DNA from: a virus
Taxonomy: Duplodnaviria > Heunggongvirae > Uroviricota > Caudoviricetes
Virus record (IMG/VR): IMGVR_UViG_2695420632_000010
Strand: one strand, 5' to 3'
Length of the DNA stretch: 9,576 nt
A program made the translations under genes and the position numbers. Below, piece after piece: positions 1,221 through 9,576 of this stretch (its first letter is position 1; the number at the start of each line of letters is the position of its first letter). Under the pieces are notes generated by a model that saw nothing but the letters and a program-made list of their open reading frames with translations, was not told the DNA's origin and searched no databases.

Positions 1221-2249
1221 TTATTTCACCTGTACCACCACAAACTCATCCGGATCCGGCAGCACCATCAGCGGCGCGGACTGCGTCATGGTGAATTCAC
1301 AGGACGGATCGCCCACGGTCAGCCAGTGTTTCGGGTAACGGGAAGAAGCCACCACTCCTTCAGACAACGCCTGTGCATCCTTAATGGCTCCATAGCAACG
1401 AATCCCCTCTGCTGCCGTATTCCCCAGCACCAGCGTGCCCTCCGGCAGATAACGTTTTTCGGTACCGTCCTCTGCCACATAAGACGTTTTCGCTACCACA
1501 ATGGCCAGATCGCCGTAATACCCCTTGAAGGATACCACTGCGCCCAGATCTTTCACTGCCGTTTCGAGTTGTGAATTTGAGCCGCGACGGGTATCCATTT
1601 TTTCGCGGAAAAGCTTAAAGCCATTCAGCAGACGCCAGACGGTACCGTCCATAATGGCAATATTCACAAGACCACTGGCCTGATCACAGAAAAGGTCGAT
1701 ATCATATGTCGGGTCGAACGTGTCACGATCCTGTTTTGACCACTCCTTACCGCTACCTTGTATGATGTTATTCTTCGTCGATCGGCCAAAATCGACTTCA
1801 ATTTTCTCGAACTGGTCTCCTTCCATCGTATATTTGCCATACAGCACGGCATTCACCGCCTGCATTTCTTCCACCTGCACAATAGCGTGCTCTTCCTGTT
1901 TGAGGTTATCAGTGATGATACGCAGACGACGGTAGGCCGGGTCGTTCAGCTGAGCCGGATCTTCACCGGGAAGGCGCTCAACCGCCTGCTGGTAATTAAA
2001 TTCGTGTTTCGGCTTGACGTAGCCCGGACGCAACACGCGGGTTTCACCACCACGATGGCGCAGCACTTTTCCTTCAACGATCGGGGAGACATAGGCCGCC
2101 ACCGGCGTTTTTCCGGTAATTTTGTCCAGCATCACTTCTTCGGTATGGAAATTCACCGTCCGGCGGAAAAACAGCTCCAGAAACAGCGCACGGAATTTCA
2201 CTTTTTGTTCGGTATAACCGAGTAACTGGCGGGTCGTAAACAATCCCAT
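1221..2249 (-). CDS. E: Major capsid protein E
   Basis: 342 aa against 341 for lambda gpE. Conserved blocks recalled from lambda E include YVSPIV, PGYVKPKHE, AQVEEMQAV, YGKYTM, TRRGSNS-LETAVKDLG and the C-terminal FTM-QSAPLM-L-DPDEFV. RBS AAAGGA sits upstream of the ATG at 2249. Confidence 0.93.
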   Translation of the reverse strand: MGLFTTRQLLGYTEQKVKFRALFLELFFRRTVNFHTEEVMLDKITGKTPVAAYVSPIVEGKVLRHRGGETRVLRPGYVKPKHEFNYQQAVERLPGEDPAQLNDPAYRRLRIITDNLKQEEHAIVQVEEMQAVNAVLYGKYTMEGDQFEKIEVDFGRSTKNNIIQGSGKEWSKQDRDTFDPTYDIDLFCDQASGLVNIAIMDGTVWRLLNGFKLFREKMDTRRGSNSQLETAVKDLGAVVSFKGYYGDLAIVVAKTSYVAEDGTEKRYLPEGTLVLGNTAAEGIRCYGAIKDAQALSEGVVASSRYPKHWLTVGDPSCEFTMTQSAPLMVLPDPDEFVVVQVK

Positions 2250-2513
2250 AAATCAGTTCCTTTCATTCAGAAATCAGTCAAACCACGATGGCGCAGCACT
2301 TTTCCTTCAACGATCGGGGAGACATAGGCCGCCACCGGCGTTTTTCCGGTAATTTTGTCCAGCATCACCTCTTCGGTGTGGAAATTCACCGTACGGCGGA
2401 AAAACAGCTCCAGAAATAGCGCACGGAATTTAACTTTTTGTTCGGTATAACCGAGTAACTGGCGGGTCGTAAACAATCCCATAAATCAGTTCCTTTCATT
2501 CAGAAATCAGTCA
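2049..2513. repeat. Tandem direct duplication, two ~232-bp units (2049-2280 and 2282-2513)
   Basis: Direct alignment of the two units shows 5 mismatches (unit-1 positions 2136, 2145, 2160, 2184, 2199). Each unit carries the 31-bp D-E intergenic leader plus E codons 1-68. Confidence 0.9.
2267..2482 (-). pseudogene. Truncated duplicate of the 5' end of major capsid gene E (E-prime): 68 E codons plus LTDF-stop
   Basis: The 71-aa ORF is identical to E residues 1-68 and then reads into the duplicated leader. It has the same RBS as E, and its stop lies 17 nt upstream of the authentic E start. Confidence 0.8.
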
Positions 2514-2532
2514 GGCCACCATGGTGGCCTGA
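2511..2532. repeat. 22-bp perfect palindrome TCAGGCCACCATGGTGGCCTGA in the D-E intergenic region
   Basis: The sequence is its own reverse complement, verified by hand. It sits between the D stop (2540) and the duplicated E leader, and the upstream edge of duplication unit 2 abuts it. Confidence 0.85.
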
Positions 2533-2539
2533 TAACGTG

Positions 2540-2887
2540 TTATGGCAGAGCCGCGTGACTCAGGGCTGTGCCGGCAAAGGCATTTGCCTTTTTGTGTTCA
2601 TCCACACTGTCAGGCCAGCGGATTGCCTCCGTCGCAAAGGTCCCCGACTTGTAATAGGTCAGCACCGTCTCTGTGCCTTCAAGCGGCAGTACCAGTATGC
2701 CAACCGCACTACCGGCTTTCTGTCCATCCCAGACCACCAGTTTCCCGGTGGCTTCATCCAGCATCAGGGGCGTCAGAGCCGGTGTTGCAGAAGAAATCCC
2801 GCTGCTGCCTGTGGCGGTATGAGCCGGATCATTACCAGCAAAAATACGTACTTCCGCACGCTGTTCAGTGATGGTTTTCGTCACCAT
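2540..2887 (-). CDS. D: Head decoration protein D
   Basis: 115 aa. Contains DPAHTAT, TPLMLD, KLV-WDG, AVGIL, YKSGTF and AFAGTA, which match lambda gpD as recalled. Position between C/Nu3 and E is as in lambda. Confidence 0.85.
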   Translation of the reverse strand: MVTKTITEQRAEVRIFAGNDPAHTATGSSGISSATPALTPLMLDEATGKLVVWDGQKAGSAVGILVLPLEGTETVLTYYKSGTFATEAIRWPDSVDEHKKANAFAGTALSHAALP

Positions 2888-2923
2888 TTTGTTAAAACCT
2901 CATATTGATGGTCAGCACTGACT

Positions 2924-3349
2924 TCATGGCATGGCCATGAGCATTTTCACGTCCGCATCACCGTCTGCTGACGTCTGTGACACGCCACCCCGCACCGCTG
3001 CCGGTGAATGATTCGCCATGAAATGTTCAAACAGGGCGGTTGTGGATGCAGAGACCGGTTCGGCCTTACCTGATCCCGCAGCCAGCACAGCCCGGGCGTT
3101 CTCCACGGTCATTCCCGGGCAGGCCGCCAGTTTTTCAGCCTGCGCTTCTGCCCCTTTTGCCTCATCCAGGGCCATGATCTGATCACGAAGTGAGGGCCCG
3201 GCATCCGCCAGTGGTGCAGCCGCCAGGATCGGGCGGGCTTTTTCCACCGTCATCTCCGGCATCGCCGCCAGCGTTGCCGCCAGTTGTTCACGACCGTTCG
3301 CTTCTTCACACGCCATAATGCGATCGGCTTCACTCTGCGCGGATGCCAC
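2924..3349 (-). CDS. nu3: Nu3-like scaffolding segment (C-terminal domain of C), out of frame (-1) with the protease domain
   Basis: Translation contains RIMACEEANGREQ and PEMTVEKARPILAAAP, resembling the lambda C/Nu3 C-terminus (RIMGILNCEEAHGREEQ, PGMTVKTARRILAAAP). This frame is open upstream to 3439. The tracked start at 3349 is a GTG; the first in-frame ATG is at the RIM motif. The true start is uncertain. Confidence 0.6.
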   Translation of the reverse strand: MASAQSEADRIMACEEANGREQLAATLAAMPEMTVEKARPILAAAPLADAGPSLRDQIMALDEAKGAEAQAEKLAACPGMTVENARAVLAAGSGKAEPVSASTTALFEHFMANHSPAAVRGGVSQTSADGDADVKMLMAMP

Positions 3350-4326
3350 CGGCTGCTGCGGTGCCGCCGCGGCCAGAATCGCCCGGGCCTGTTCAAAGCT
3401 TCCGTTGCAGTTAATTGCGGCATAGTGCCTCCTCTGACATTACTGTTCAGCGCCGTGGCCATCACACTGATGGCATCCGACGCATTGATTAATTCATCCG
3501 CCAGCCCGGCCTCAATGCCGGACTGACCTTCAAAAACGGCGGCCTCTGTTCCCGTGACCGCATCCACAGACAACCCGGTATACATCGCCACTTTTTCGGC
3601 AAACATCCGGTGCGCCGCATCAATCCGCTGCTGCATATCCTGGCGAACCTCTGCCGGCAACGCTTCAAACTGATTGCCATCCACCTTGTGCGCCCCGGCA
3701 TAAATCAGCGTGATATCCACACCGGCCTGCGCCAGATGACCGGCATAGCTGACATGGCTCATCATCACGCCAATGGAGCCGATACGGGATGTCTGGGTAA
3801 CCAGCCGTCGGGAGCAGGCCGACGCCAGCAGCATGGCTGCAGAACAGGCAGTGTCATTGCACAGTGCCCAGACCGGCTTCTGCTGACGGAGGCGGTAAAT
3901 CATGTCAGCGCAGTCAAACGCGCCGGCGGCCTGCCCTCCCGGACTGTCAATGTCCAGCAGTACGCCCCGCACCTGGCTATCCGCCATTGCCAGCTGAAGA
4001 CAGGCGACAATACCGTCATAGCCTGTCATTCCGGAAAATGGCCGCATACCACCCAGCCGGTGCACCAGCGTGCCGGTCACCGGCAGTACAGCAATACCGT
4101 TCACCACCCGGTAAACACGGGCCGGTCGTTTACCTCCGGCCATGTACTCGTCCGTTTCAGCCAGCATCCCGGGAGCATCAAGCTGTACCTGCTGTTGCGG
4201 TACCGAAAGACTTGCTGCCCCCATCTCGCGCCCCAGCGCGCAAAAGAAAACCCGCGCATAGGCGGGCTCCAGAAGCAGCGGTTCATTGAATACTGCTGCA
4301 ATAATGTGTGAAAGATTACGTCTCAC
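3250..4326 (-). CDS. C: Prohead protease C (S49 / ClpP-like family), protease domain; C-terminal ~50 codons are out-of-frame junk
   Basis: GTG start at 4326. N-terminus NLSHIIAAVFNEPLLLEPAYARVFFCAL matches lambda gpC (NLPHIASMAFNEPLMLEPAYARVFFCAL). NGIAVLPV-GTL, YSGMTGY, PVWAL and RRLVTQT-R-GSIGVMM are also conserved. After ...GGTMPQLTATEA the frame turns into an Arg/Trp-rich tail, which indicates a frame break. Start overlaps the B stop by 11 nt. Confidence 0.85.
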   Translation of the reverse strand: MRRNLSHIIAAVFNEPLLLEPAYARVFFCALGREMGAASLSVPQQQVQLDAPGMLAETDEYMAGGKRPARVYRVVNGIAVLPVTGTLVHRLGGMRPFSGMTGYDGIVACLQLAMADSQVRGVLLDIDSPGGQAAGAFDCADMIYRLRQQKPVWALCNDTACSAAMLLASACSRRLVTQTSRIGSIGVMMSHVSYAGHLAQAGVDITLIYAGAHKVDGNQFEALPAEVRQDMQQRIDAAHRMFAEKVAMYTGLSVDAVTGTEAAVFEGQSGIEAGLADELINASDAISVMATALNSNVRGGTMPQLTATEALNRPGRFWPRRHRSSRWHPRRVKPIALWRVKKRTVVNNWRQRWRRCRR

Positions 4327-5908
4327 GTGGTGTTGTCTCCTCTTCCGGCCTGCGACTCTCCGCTATCTGCTGCTGATACGCCTGCGCTATCCACACCGGA
4401 CGTGAGAGTCCGGCTTTTTGCCGCTCAGCAGATTCCCTGACCTGCTGGCGGAAAATGTCCTGATAATCCTCGCCCATCAGCGCCAGCTCTTTCTCATACG
4501 TGCTCAGTCCGGCCTCAATGCGCATCACTGATTCCTGGACTTCCTTGAGCCCGTCAATGGCCATTCTTCCGGCACCAATCCACTCTGCCCGTGACCAGGC
4601 TGATCGCGCCTGATAAAAATCAAAACGTGCCCGTGGCGGACGAATAATCCCCCGAAGAAGTGCCTCTTCCAGCCAGCAGGAAAACATCTGCGTGGCCAGC
4701 CGGGCCGCAATAAATTTTCGCCGCCCCATAAAATAGCGCCACGACTCATTGGCGGAGGCGCGGGCACTTGAGTAACTGACCTTCGAGTAATCACGGGACA
4801 ACTGTTCGTAGGAAACGCCAAGACCGGCGGCGATATACCGCAGCAGCGCCTGTTCAAGCGCAGAAAATCCATTGTCTGAATCCTGCGCGGTCTGAAGTTT
4901 CAGATCATCACCGGGGAAAAGGTGCGGAATTTTGACACCGCCCAGCGTCACGCTATTCGTGTCATACCAGGTGGAGAACTTATCCAGAATATTAATAAGC
5001 GGATTATCCTTCTGCCCCTGCGGCGCACCGGCGATATATTCAAAGGCCTTTTCGGTATCAAGGTCACTTTCAATCGTCGCTGCATACATCGCCTTCACTA
5101 TGGCCGACTGAAGCTGTGTTGCCTGCAGGGAATCCAGCATCTTCAGCCGTTCCATAACGCTGTAAAACTGATTGGCTCCACGGGTCTGCCCGTCCTCCAC
5201 CGGCTCGAAAATATGCAGCATGGCCGGACGCCCGGTGGGTAGTTCACGCGGGATCCGTTCCCATCGTCCATTCCCGGAGCGAGGAAAATCATCCTCACAG
5301 ATATGGTACGCAACGGCACGGCCATATCGATCGACCTCCACACCGGCCCGCAGAAAACGGTTCCCGATACCGTGTCCTGGCGTGTCCACCCGTTTCGGAC
5401 TCACGGCTTTAAAACGCGTACGAAACAGTTGCGTACTCTCCGTATCCCAGACCGGCTGCACAAAGATTTCGCCGTTAAACGCATGAACGCCCACACCTTC
5501 ACGGATAAATTCCGTAAACGTGCGTTTCCCTTCCACGTCGATCTCACCAAACATCCCTTCTGCGTATTCTGACCAGGCCGCCTCCACCTCATCGACAAAA
5601 CTTTTTGCCGCGGTCTCCCGCATCCCCAGCCAGCGCCAGTTCGGACGGTAGCTAATCAGAAACATATGCCCGACAATGTGATCCTTATGCAGGGCCACCG
5701 CATTGGCCGCTATTCCGTTATTGCGCACCAGATCATCTGCACGGGCATTCCCCAGACGCAACGCGGGCAGCAGGGCCGCATCGGCACTCTGCGAGGGTGG
5801 CAACCACTCTGCCATTTGCCCGCCAAATCCTGCACCGCCACCGTTGTAGCTGAGGCTCTCCCGAAGCGGAACGCCGTTCACATCAATCAGGACAGGCGTT
5901 CGTTTCAT
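4316..5908 (-). CDS. B: Portal protein B
   Basis: 530 aa against 533 for lambda gpB. The first ~38 residues (MKRTPVLIDVNGVPLRESLSYNGGGAGFGGQMAEWLPP) are essentially identical to lambda B as I recall it. Its ATG overlaps the W stop as ATGA. Confidence 0.95.
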   Translation of the reverse strand: MKRTPVLIDVNGVPLRESLSYNGGGAGFGGQMAEWLPPSQSADAALLPALRLGNARADDLVRNNGIAANAVALHKDHIVGHMFLISYRPNWRWLGMRETAAKSFVDEVEAAWSEYAEGMFGEIDVEGKRTFTEFIREGVGVHAFNGEIFVQPVWDTESTQLFRTRFKAVSPKRVDTPGHGIGNRFLRAGVEVDRYGRAVAYHICEDDFPRSGNGRWERIPRELPTGRPAMLHIFEPVEDGQTRGANQFYSVMERLKMLDSLQATQLQSAIVKAMYAATIESDLDTEKAFEYIAGAPQGQKDNPLINILDKFSTWYDTNSVTLGGVKIPHLFPGDDLKLQTAQDSDNGFSALEQALLRYIAAGLGVSYEQLSRDYSKVSYSSARASANESWRYFMGRRKFIAARLATQMFSCWLEEALLRGIIRPPRARFDFYQARSAWSRAEWIGAGRMAIDGLKEVQESVMRIEAGLSTYEKELALMGEDYQDIFRQQVRESAERQKAGLSRPVWIAQAYQQQIAESRRPEEETTPRET

Positions 5909-6111
5909 AACCTCACTCCCAGCGGACGACGGCGACGGCGGGTTGTCCCCAGTACCGACTCCGCATCATTGATCGCCCGGTTAAGCTCATCCAGAGAAGC
6001 TGCCGTATATTCAATTCTGCGACCATCTTTCTGGACAGACACCACCCGTTTACCGGTTAATAAATCAAGGCGCGCCTGACGCAGCACCTGCAGTTCAGCG
6101 ACTGTAACCAT
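5905..6111 (-). CDS. W: Head-tail joining protein W
   Basis: 68 aa, same as lambda gpW. The motif TGKRV--VQKDGRR-E-TA-S---L and the RRRR near the C-terminus match lambda W. GGAGGA lies 4 nt upstream of the ATG. Confidence 0.85.
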   Translation of the reverse strand: MVTVAELQVLRQARLDLLTGKRVVSVQKDGRRIEYTAASLDELNRAINDAESVLGTTRRRRRPLGVRL

Positions 6112-8023
6112 TCACTCCTCCGGACAGCTTCGCTGCCAGTTCTTTAAGGGTTGGCCGGGTCGTCTCTTCTTCCCGGGATTTTGCCAGTACAGCCAGATCA
6201 AGCTGCCAGCGTTGCACGGACACACGTAATGCCGCGTAGGCATACACCAGGCAGTCCAGCGCTTCGTTACGCCGCTTTTTGTTATCCCACAGCAGACGCA
6301 TCTTTCCTTTTTCCCACTTCTCCACAAGCTCTTCCGCGACCAGTTGCTGCGCCTCTGTCTGCGAAAAAATCTCCGGATCATCAGGAAAACGGATGGCATA
6401 CGACGTGGCTTCATCCACAGGCGTGGGATCGGCTTTCATACGGGCATAGAGAATTTCTTTTGCGGTGTCCGTCCCCACTTCGCACAGATACACGCCCCGC
6501 TGATTGCGGGTTTTTGGCATGGTGATCACCGGCTTGCCATAAACAGATGCACCTTTTACCGGCAGCACCCGGAAAACACCGTGTTTTTTTGACCTCTGAT
6601 AGACAATTTCGCCATCGATCCCCCCGGTGTCCCAGCAGACACGGGAAATGGTCATTTCGGTTCCGTCTGCATGGCGGTATTTTTTGTTGATCGCCACATC
6701 CACACGTAACAGCGTCTCTTCCTCATCGGGACGCCCCATAATGATGATTTTATCCACCAGAAAGGCTTCCTCTCCCGGAGCCCATCCCCAGACATACATC
6801 TCAAAACGGTTTCGCTGCGAGTCAATGCCCGCCGTCAGATAAACCACCCGGGAAGGCACCGCAGCCGTGTAACGCACAACCTTATCCATCAGCACCTGGT
6901 GATCGAGTTTTTCGCCCACGGCCTCTTCCCAGGTCTCGCCCAGCGTGGTGTTCACAAAGGTTTTCAGGCCGTTGGGATCTTTCAGTGCATCCAGCCAGTC
7001 ATAGACAATCTGTACCCAGGTGGTGAACGGACTGTACGCCGTCCAGATATGGAATGTGATGGAGCGCGGCGGCGGAATTTCATTATCCGCGGCGCTGAAA
7101 AACGTCAGACCGTCGCGGGTCCACATCCCCGTGTTTTCGCAGATCCACCGCCCGTTGCTCTGGTCAAGCTCAGACTGATGGATCACGCAGCCATGATGTT
7201 CACAGAGGTAGAAAACGCTTTCGGGGCTGTCCTTCTCCCATTTAAGGCCAAAAGGCGTGGACTCATCGCCAAATTTCAGATACTGCGCCTCCCCACAGTG
7301 CGGGCAGGGCACATAAAAACGCATGAAATGCGCCGACTCGTTGGCCGCTTTTTCGATCTGGCAGGAGCCTTTTATTTTAGGCGTCGAGCCGCGAATGGAT
7401 TTTGGCCATACCGAGCCCTCAATACGCTTATCCCCCAGCAGGGTTGGCGAGCCCTCTTTTTCGACATCCGGCTCGAACGAGGAAAGTTCGTCATAGCAGA
7501 CCACGTCCACGGATTTTTCACGGTAGTTTTTTGCTGCCGCACCACCCAGGCACCAGAAGCCCACCCCCGATGAAAAGCGTTTCAGCGTGAGAGTATTGTC
7601 ACGATGTTTACGACCCAGCCACGGGGAAAGATCTTTCAGGCATGGCACGTCCCGAATCGTCGCCTCCACGTGAGACTTCATAAAATCTTCAGCGGCAGAA
7701 TCCGTGGGCTGAAAAAGCAGACTGTTTCGGGATTTATGCTCAATAAAATACCCGGCGACTCCCAGCAACATCTTTGTATAGCCAACACGGGCAGATTTAA
7801 TCAGATTAACAGTGCGGATCTGATCATTCCCCATACTGTTCATGATGGCGATCTGGAACGGCAGCGTTTTCCATTCGCCGTCACCGTATGAGGATTCTTT
7901 CGGCAGATAATAATACTGGTCAGCCCATTCAACTGCCGTCATCGGTACAACCCTGACCAGAGGCTGCAGCGCAACCGAAACGGCGGCCACCATATTATTC
8001 AGTTGTTGCTCTGATATATTCAT
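6095..8023 (-). CDS. A: Terminase large subunit A
   Basis: Start set at the ATG at 8023 (MNISEQQ..., compare lambda MNISNSQ), giving 642 aa against 641 for lambda. Extensive matches recalled from lambda gpA, for example TAVEWAD--YYLPKES, KSARVGY-KMLLGV, GDKRIEGSVWPKSIRGSTPK, HFMRF-V-CPHCGE-QYLKFGD, FHIWTAYSPFTTWVQIV and KKRRNEALDC-VYA-AALR. The tracked start at 8080 is an upstream extension into Nu1. Start overlaps the Nu1 3' end by 29 nt, as in lambda. Confidence 0.95.
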   Translation of the reverse strand: MNISEQQLNNMVAAVSVALQPLVRVVPMTAVEWADQYYYLPKESSYGDGEWKTLPFQIAIMNSMGNDQIRTVNLIKSARVGYTKMLLGVAGYFIEHKSRNSLLFQPTDSAAEDFMKSHVEATIRDVPCLKDLSPWLGRKHRDNTLTLKRFSSGVGFWCLGGAAAKNYREKSVDVVCYDELSSFEPDVEKEGSPTLLGDKRIEGSVWPKSIRGSTPKIKGSCQIEKAANESAHFMRFYVPCPHCGEAQYLKFGDESTPFGLKWEKDSPESVFYLCEHHGCVIHQSELDQSNGRWICENTGMWTRDGLTFFSAADNEIPPPRSITFHIWTAYSPFTTWVQIVYDWLDALKDPNGLKTFVNTTLGETWEEAVGEKLDHQVLMDKVVRYTAAVPSRVVYLTAGIDSQRNRFEMYVWGWAPGEEAFLVDKIIIMGRPDEEETLLRVDVAINKKYRHADGTEMTISRVCWDTGGIDGEIVYQRSKKHGVFRVLPVKGASVYGKPVITMPKTRNQRGVYLCEVGTDTAKEILYARMKADPTPVDEATSYAIRFPDDPEIFSQTEAQQLVAEELVEKWEKGKMRLLWDNKKRRNEALDCLVYAYAALRVSVQRWQLDLAVLAKSREEETTRPTLKELAAKLSGGVNGYSR

Positions 8024-8501
8024 CCAGCAAATCCGGTAATTTATCCCCTGCCCGCGCACACTGATTTGCGCCCTTTGCAATAAGGGTTTTCAGATGGTCA
8101 ATATGACGTGGCGTTAAATCCGGGAACTGTCGCTGCATGGATAACGGAATGGAATCAAGCGTACTGGACAATGCCATCGCCAGTTTGCTGAGGGCGAAAA
8201 CGCAGAAGTCTGAATCGATGAGCTTACCTTCGGTTACCTGATTTTTAAGTTTTTGAGCTACAGCCTGTTCTTCTGTCAGTTCAGCTCTGGCCCGAAGCAG
8301 CCTTTCCTCCAGTTCTCCCCCGTCATCAGGTGTTCTCTGATTGTGTTGTCGCCGCTCGCGATCTATCTCCAGTACAGTTTTAACGTCATATAAAACTTCC
8401 CTCCCCCGACGTTCAACAGGAGGAACGCCCCATTTATCAAATGCCTGAACAGAGATACCGATGGAGGAGGCCATATCACTTTTATTCAATAAAAAGGCCA
8501 T
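7995..8501 (-). CDS. nu1: Terminase small subunit Nu1
   Basis: Homology to lambda gpNu1: EVLYD, the middle helical region, and the C-terminal LS-QR-FP-L--RH-D-LK block. Preferred start is the ATG at 8501, preceded by GGAGAGGAG (MAFLLNKSD...). The ATG at 8519 is an alternative. The tracked start at 8606 would run through the cosB repeats and is unlikely. Confidence 0.85.
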   Translation of the reverse strand: MAFLLNKSDMASSIGISVQAFDKWGVPPVERRGREVLYDVKTVLEIDRERRQHNQRTPDDGGELEERLLRARAELTEEQAVAQKLKNQVTEGKLIDSDFCVFALSKLAMALSSTLDSIPLSMQRQFPDLTPRHIDHLKTLIAKGANQCARAGDKLPDLLDEYIRATTE

Positions 8502-8531
8502 CTCCTCTCCATAAGTCATCGATAAAAAGCG

Positions 8532-8680
8532 AAACAACAACCATGTGTTTTTGCAAAACCATTTGATATCATTGACATTTTTCGCATTGACGACATCAAA
8601 ACACATCGTAAGGTTGTTGTATTTATTTTATTTTCACCTTACTTATCAATTAGATATACCAAACAATTAAACAACAACCA
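8532..8680. other. cosB-like region: three copies of ACAACAACC (two direct, one inverted) between cosN and Nu1
   Basis: AAACAACAACCA at 8532-8543 and at 8669-8680, with the inverted copy GGTTGTTGT at 8612-8620. An AT-rich segment with an IHF-like TATCAATTAGATA lies between them (8643-8655). The layout parallels lambda R1/R2/I1/R3, but the sequences differ from lambda. Confidence 0.5.
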
Positions 8681-8717
8681 CCCCCTCAAAAAATCTCATA
8701 AATAGTGAAAACGCGCG

Positions 8718-8729
8718 AGGTCGCCGCCC
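8718..8729 (-). other. cosN: 12-nt cohesive-end sequence GGGCGGCGACCT (minus strand), the virion genome ends
   Basis: Minus strand 8760->8700 reads CGGGTCCTTTCCGGCGATCCGGGCCGTTACG|GGGCGGCGACCTCGCGCGTTTTCACTATTTATGA. This is near-identical to the lambda right-end/left-end junction (..GGTTACG|GGGCGGCGACCTCGCGGGTTTTCGCTATTTATGAAAA) as I recall it. Confidence 0.85.
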
Positions 8730-8981
8730 CGTAACGGCCCGGATCGCCGGAAAGGACCCGCAAAATGATAATGGTTATCATTTTCAATGTAGTCCGGTTT
8801 CTTCCACCATCGCACCGGACTGGCGACTATGAGGGGACAACGCCGCGCTCCGTTAACGCGGTAAACCCCGGTGTGTATCGTTTTTGATTATCCCCGCACA
8901 CTCGCGCAGAGGAGTCTCCCTGTCGGGCTGCGGTCTCTGTTAATGAGGGAATACAGCGACGATACGGCGCATCAGCAAAAC

Positions 8982-9449
8982 TTAGTTCAGGCACTGAGTG
9001 CGGATATAGTCCTGTGCCCCTTCCAGCTGCTTCTGCATTGTCATCAACCGTTCTCTGAGGATGAAATAATCCCGTTCAGCGGTGTCTGCCAGTCGGGGGC
9101 CGGTTGCATTATCCACGCCGGAGGTGCCGGTGGCTTCACGCACGGTACCGGAGCAGGTGGCGTTGATCCGCAGGCGCTTACGACCAGCGGCAACATCAGC
9201 ACGTAGAGTTTCATTTTCAGCTCTCGCATCGGCTAATTCCCTCGAGTATCTGGCATCAAGTTCAGCGACATCACGCTGGCGTATCTGCATATCAGTAATT
9301 GTCGCGTTCGCCAGTTTCAGCTCACTGACTTTTTTATCGCGCTGCGCTTTGTAGGTGATGGCGTTATCGCGGTAATGATTCAGCCCCAGACTAAGCACAC
9401 CACAGGCTACCAGCAGGACAATAATCACCACACACAGAACACGGTTCAT
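8982..9449 (-). CDS. Rz: Spanin, inner-membrane subunit Rz (i-spanin)
   Basis: From the ATG at 9449: [39 protein letters not shown]...[22 protein letters not shown]. Strong match to lambda Rz (..[35 protein letters not shown]..). N-terminal TM segment present. The tracked GTG start at 9533 is a likely over-extension. Confidence 0.9.
9044..9229 (-). CDS. Rz1: Spanin, outer-membrane lipoprotein subunit Rz1 (o-spanin), nested in the +1 frame of Rz
   Basis: 61 aa. Lipobox VVSAC and the proline-rich [27 protein letters not shown] match lambda Rz1 ([27 protein letters not shown]). Entirely embedded within Rz, as in lambda. Confidence 0.8.
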
Positions 9450-9450
9450 A

Positions 9451-9576
9451 TCACCACCAACGGATTGCCCAGACCAGAACAGCAATGGCCACAATACGAA
9501 TAGCAAATGCCATTGCCCGAATAAGTTCAGCACTCATCTTTTTAAAGTTCACGATTTCAGCGCAATGACCAGTTTT
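9451..9576 (-). CDS. 3' end of an unidentified gene immediately upstream of Rz; strongly hydrophobic C-terminus
   Basis: The only open minus-strand frame at the window edge reads ...[41 protein letters not shown]-stop. The TGA stop (9453-9451) lies 1 nt before the Rz ATG. Position suggests a lysis-cassette gene, but the C-terminus does not resemble lambda R as I recall it. Confidence 0.35.

Follow-up and report, generated by a model that had tools for sequence, protein, structure and literature searches.

The window, 9,576 nt of DNA in all, is the entire contig CYEG01000068.1 of the draft assembly GCA_001285925.2. Its minus strand carries a phage 21-type lambdoid late operon with the order Rz/Rz1, cos site, Nu1, A, W, B, C, D, E, FI, FII, and the start of Z. 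An exact copy of the lambda cohesive-end 12-mer, GGGCGGCGACCT, is found at 8718-8729 on the minus strand, about 217 nt upstream of the Nu1 start, which fits the position expected for a packaging module of the lambda/phage 21 type. The Rz/Rz1 spanin pair (8982-9533 and 9044-9229, minus strand) is ordinary, with Rz1 lying entirely within Rz in another frame and bearing a lipoprotein-like signal (...LVVSAC). In the interval from the lysis genes to the small terminase gene, the closest complete genomes are ~1 kb longer (window ~8600-9000; F8704-2 1843-3093), with small hypothetical genes and a member of the YlcI/YnfO family in this stretch; the difference in length upstream of Nu1 is probably ordinary lambdoid mosaicism. 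One end of the 9.6-kb contig (window position 9576) lies a little upstream of Rz and the other (position 1) inside tail gene Z, consistent with assembly breaks at sequence common to several prophages.

Table 1. Features of the protease-scaffold locus and its surroundings (window coordinates)
Feature	Position	Strand	Basis
Portal gene B (Phage_portal_2)	4316-5908	-	Pfam
S49 peptidase ORF (C-type), 358 aa	3250-4326	-	ORF list and Pfam
5' part of the gene (gene nt 1-929): S49 prohead protease domain and codons 1-9 of the nested scaffold gene	3398-4326	-	Pfam; colinear with intact 1506-nt genes
Start of the nested scaffold gene: RBS AGAGGAGG (3435-3428) and ATG (3423-3421)	3421-3435	-	Identical to the gene 6 start of M81255/OL657228
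N of the record (A in the window), very probably a scaffold join with ~104 nt missing (gene nt 930-1033)	3397	.	Record and alignments
Flanks of the join: ...ACGGAAGC on one side, TTGAACAGG... on the other	3397		
3' part of the gene (gene nt 1034-1506): scaffold (Nu3-like) domain in the correct frame	2924-3396	-	Gapless alignment to AR_0017 and phage 21
Arg/Trp-rich tail of the 358-aa ORF, very probably spurious	3250-3396	-	Scaffold domain in the wrong frame
Tri1 box, leftover 3' part; its 5' 63 nt fall within the gap	3356-3396	-	M81255 repeat_region via alignment
Second "Tri box" repeat	3209-3319	-	M81255 annotation transferred
"Tri3 box" repeat	3065-3178	-	M81255 annotation transferred
Head decoration gene D (HDPD)	2540-2887	-	Pfam
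Apparent tandem duplication, clearly false (copies 2282-2513 and 2049-2280)	2049-2513	-	Repeat search, 97% identity
Spurious 71-aa ORF with the N-terminal sequence of capsid protein E	2267-2482	-	From the unmerged overlap
Second N (A in the window), a scaffold join of pieces with overlapping ends	2281	.	Record comparison
Major capsid gene E (Phage_cap_E)	1221-2249	-	Pfam

The C-type ORF lies between the lambda-family portal gene B on one side and genes D and E on the other, and an S49 (ClpP/SppA-like) serine peptidase domain is found in the N-terminal two thirds (Pfam PF01343 Peptidase_S49, E = 7.8e-36, residues 146-293). Its 358-aa translation is sensible as far as ...GGTMPQLTATEA, beyond which it gives way to an Arg/Trp-rich tail; scaffold-like sequence is encoded in a second frame on the same strand that stays open between 3439 and 2924. 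The first-pass annotation, made from the letters alone, had described the two frames in just these terms, the second as Nu3-like, and had bracketed the break at 3392-3420; the S49 domain and the extent of the open frames confirm the description, and the bracket was correct, the junction lying at exactly 3397. As that annotation had also noted, the sequence is free of slippery heptamers: the zero frame of ORF 3250-4326 contains no X_XXY_YYZ motif.

The window was compared base by base with the deposited record. Exactly two positions differ, 3397 and 2281, and at both the record has N where the window has A; they correspond to the "n" at 6180 and the "n" at 7296 of CYEG01000068.1, respectively. 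A single base missing from the A3 run at 3395-3397 had been proposed as the cause of the frame break, and the third A of that run is in fact an N. Substituting any base for this N leaves the out-of-frame tail unchanged.

Positions 2924-4326 were used as a megablast query against 5,426 complete E. coli genomes with a coverage threshold of ≥80%. At this threshold the region was found in 1,866 of the 5,426, with a median of two and a maximum of six matching places per complete genome holding the gene. The best 40 of the 1,866 genomes all match in two pieces with a span of 1505-1506 nt, compared with 1403 nt in the window; the best phage matches, phage 21 included, likewise span about 1500-1506 nt, and every phage record crossing the junction aligned in two pieces. 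AR_0017, the closest among the matches listed (99.6% identity), encodes a 501-aa "S49 family peptidase" in one 1506-nt ORF, and the annotated relatives have a single continuous ORF of that length. Pairwise alignments with AR_0017, phage 21, and F8704-2 place the whole discrepancy in a single clean gap, where 104 nt of the relatives (gene nt 930-1033) stand against one base in the window and the flanks are otherwise nearly identical, so that the net loss at 3397 is 103 nt. Once the N is replaced by the relatives' 104 nt, the frame that is broken in the window can be read without a break from the start of the protease to the stop of the scaffold, giving a gene of 1506 nt and a 501-aa protein without internal stop that differs from the AR_0017 protein at 2 residues. 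The scaffold domain would therefore look frameshifted because the 103 net missing bases equal 1 mod 3, and for the same reason the tail at 3250-3396 would be scaffold domain misread in the wrong frame. In several complete E. coli genomes (e.g., NZ_CP043406.1), an IS200C transposase gene lies between the S49 peptidase and head decoration genes, at a site homologous to about window 2890-2925.

These intact 1506-nt relatives bear out the proposal of the first-pass annotation that both halves belong to one C/Nu3-type gene. Its estimate of ~467 codons for the intact ORF gives way to 501 codons, found both in the relatives and in the gap-filled gene. Aligning the C genes of relatives, which it had advised as the way to locate the indel, did position the break at 3397, and what emerged there was the absence of 104 nt and not an indel of one base. 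A single-base indel in the A3 run is thus rejected, since the relatives have 104 nt at that place and not 2.

The comparison also tells against programmed ribosomal frameshifting as the means by which the protease and scaffold frames are joined. Nothing beyond the two-frame appearance of the window favors it, the zero frame is devoid of a slippery heptamer, and one continuous frame is present in every relative examined, the offset in the window being created by the N. With neither a slippery site nor a conserved two-frame arrangement, the probability of this explanation is negligible, as the first-pass annotation had anticipated in calling it unlikely.

Within the gene, the nested scaffold reading frame is preceded by a separate RBS, begins at its own ATG, and in the gap-filled gene ends at the common stop at 2924-2926. 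Its ATG lies 9 codons upstream of the break, and because of this position a gene 6-type product would be frameshifted too in the sequence as given; contrary to what had been suggested, an internal start consequently would not yield the scaffold domain from the sequence as it stands. The gap comprises 41 nt upstream of the Tri1 box together with the first 63 nt of Tri1. The scaffold domain contains (at 3065-3396, minus strand) three imperfect ~37-aa repeats of the form ...EA.GREQLA..LA..P.MTVE.AR.ILAAA, which in M81255 are annotated as the Tri1, Tri, and Tri3 boxes of unknown function; most of the first repeat is lost to the gap.

The second N has a discontinuity of its own. It sits at 2281, exactly between the two copies of an apparent 232/233-nt tandem duplication that comprises the D-E intergenic region and E codons 1-67, and relatives have one copy of this D-E intergenic/E 5' stretch. 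A register scan gave a 232-nt overlap with 5 mismatches between the piece ends, all of them synonymous because both copies translate identically. A real tandem duplication of the E 5' end was considered and rejected, the copies differing at 5 synonymous sites and having an N between them: a fresh duplication would give identical copies, so the five silent differences fit two alleles instead, which implies either at least two related prophages or a chimeric scaffold. The pieces meeting at 2281 overlap by 232 nt and would have stayed unmerged because they differ at 5 sites. Since the N at 2281 clearly sits on such an unmerged overlap, it serves as independent evidence that the Ns in this contig mark joins.

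Searches for the junctions themselves were negative. Neither a 56-mer over the frame-break junction nor a 56-mer across the 2281 junction was found in the 5,426 complete E. coli genomes, and a 26-mer over the frame-break junction had no match in 185,579 GTDB species-representative genomes. Elsewhere in the head cluster the genes are intact and free of further lesions, with 98.6-99.9% identity to intact relatives, and the middle piece, 2282-3396, aligns in one piece at 99.9% to the intact C-D-E loci of other genomes.

On this evidence, drawn from the deposited sequence and its relatives, the frame break is very likely a draft short-read assembly artefact at a single-N join and not a mutation. 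The contig would consist of three assembled pieces, 1-2280, 2282-3396, and 3398-9576, joined by single N characters, and the join at 3397 would skip ~104 nt of the protease-scaffold gene, which the real genome would carry intact. The N lies exactly at the discontinuity, and each flank is colinear with intact references. Co-resident related prophages are the likely cause of the assembly-graph break in the cluster: the 5 allelic mismatches suggest that at least two closely related lambdoid prophages were present and that these broke the assembly there. A scaffolder or gap closer may then have left a single N after estimating a gap of zero or less. Tools of the SSPACE type may write a single N where their gap estimate comes out at zero or below. 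That a gap of ~104 nt received a single N is plausibly due to under-estimation of the gap size or to partial filling of the gap. The single-N convention is not stated in the GapFiller paper, and the exact tool behavior is what we infer; a literature search found no publication on CYEG01/GCA_001285925 naming the assembler or scaffolder. In scaffolding generally, contigs linked by read pairs are strung together with Ns standing for gaps whose size is unknown, and false joins can arise from greedy scaffolding and gap filling (PMC5320598).

The first-pass annotation had left a choice between a real inactivating indel in a defective prophage and a sequencing error. The sequence does seem to be in error, although not through base calling or a 1-nt error, a single-N join hiding ~104 nt being the probable source; the inactivating indel is unsupported, the junction not lying in determined sequence. 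A pseudogene would have its lesion in determined, contiguous sequence, and here the junction base is N, likewise at 2281.

That the gap at 3397 nonetheless conceals a genuine lesion, whether a 103-nt deletion or an IS insertion, is improbable; if it did, neither the fusion nor the nested scaffold protein would be intact, and the prophage would assemble no heads. Taken at face value, the deposited sequence reads as though a decaying prophage had truly lost 103 nt of gene C by deletion, with the N as an ambiguous base at the junction. Prophage decay by deletion is common, and in relatives the stretch absent here is bordered by a weak microhomology of 3 nt (AGC); the protease-scaffold fusion and the nested scaffold protein would each lack the scaffold domain, and no proheads would form. 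However, the junction base is N in the record, and the contig's only other N is also on a structural discontinuity, an unmerged two-allele overlap, so that a deletion would need both Ns to fall on structural anomalies by coincidence. The junction was, moreover, seen in no other genome of the complete E. coli set or the GTDB representatives, and the rest of the head cluster is intact at the identity to relatives given above. Together these points make a true deletion highly unlikely. A microhomology-mediated event in particular was rejected, the shared sequence being only the 3-nt AGC and the junction base, which matches neither flank, being the N placeholder.

The missing 104 nt are awkward for the suggestion that the gap hides some other real lesion, such as an IS element inserted into the Tri1 part of gene C, because a simple insertion leaves abutting flanks and a target-site duplication. 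IS elements do break short-read assemblies, and the IS200C found between C and D in some relatives indicates that insertion into the head cluster occurs. Against this, the single-N join itself indicates that read pairs placed the two pieces close together, and co-resident paralogous prophages, of which the 5 mismatches in the other overlap speak, suffice to explain the breaks; we accord a hidden lesion of this type very little probability.

The break in the protease-scaffold gene is, in all likelihood, not a real feature of this prophage. The value of the finding is in quality control only, and it adds nothing new on lambda-type prohead proteases. When Ns are shown as A, single-N joins can mimic frameshifts, deletions, tandem duplications, and short novel ORFs, and gene callers have already called join-derived proteins on this contig, namely, the 358-aa protease with the Arg/Trp tail, a 109-aa ORF, and the 71-aa capsid fragment. 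Flagging or masking Ns before the sequence is read would remove this class of false finding.

The two joins resemble the scaffold-join artefacts known from short-read drafts and would be of the same kind, one with missing and the other with duplicated sequence, and both junctions are unique to assembly GCA_001285925.2. The gene itself is an ordinary, previously described homologue of phage 21 gene 5/6 and lambda C/Nu3. Phage 21 (GenBank M81255, OL657228) has 96.9% nucleotide identity over the gene, and the window differs from it only by point substitutions and by the 104 nt missing at the N join. Phage 21 gene 5 encodes a 501-aa capsid protease/scaffolding protein, the same length as the window gene after gap filling, and is placed between the portal and head-decoration genes, as in the window. 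Its gene 6 is a nested in-frame Nu3 analogue that starts at the ATG of MPQLTATEA... with an AGGAGG RBS ahead and contains three "Tri box" repeats, and the same Tri repeats are present in the window gene. In lambda, a single reading frame and stop codon serve both gpC and Nu3, and the window gene has this architecture in common with them: an S49 protease domain, then a scaffold domain, the scaffold protein having an in-frame start of its own inside the gene. The lambda C protein has 439 aa, compared with 501 aa in the phage 21 type, and the lambda C gene was not among the megablast matches of the window region, which makes it more distant at the DNA level. Phage 21 gp5 matches lambda C by BLASTp with E = 4.9e-139 (OL657228 annotation), and the gene order Nu1-A-W-B-C-D-E in the window is the same as in lambda.
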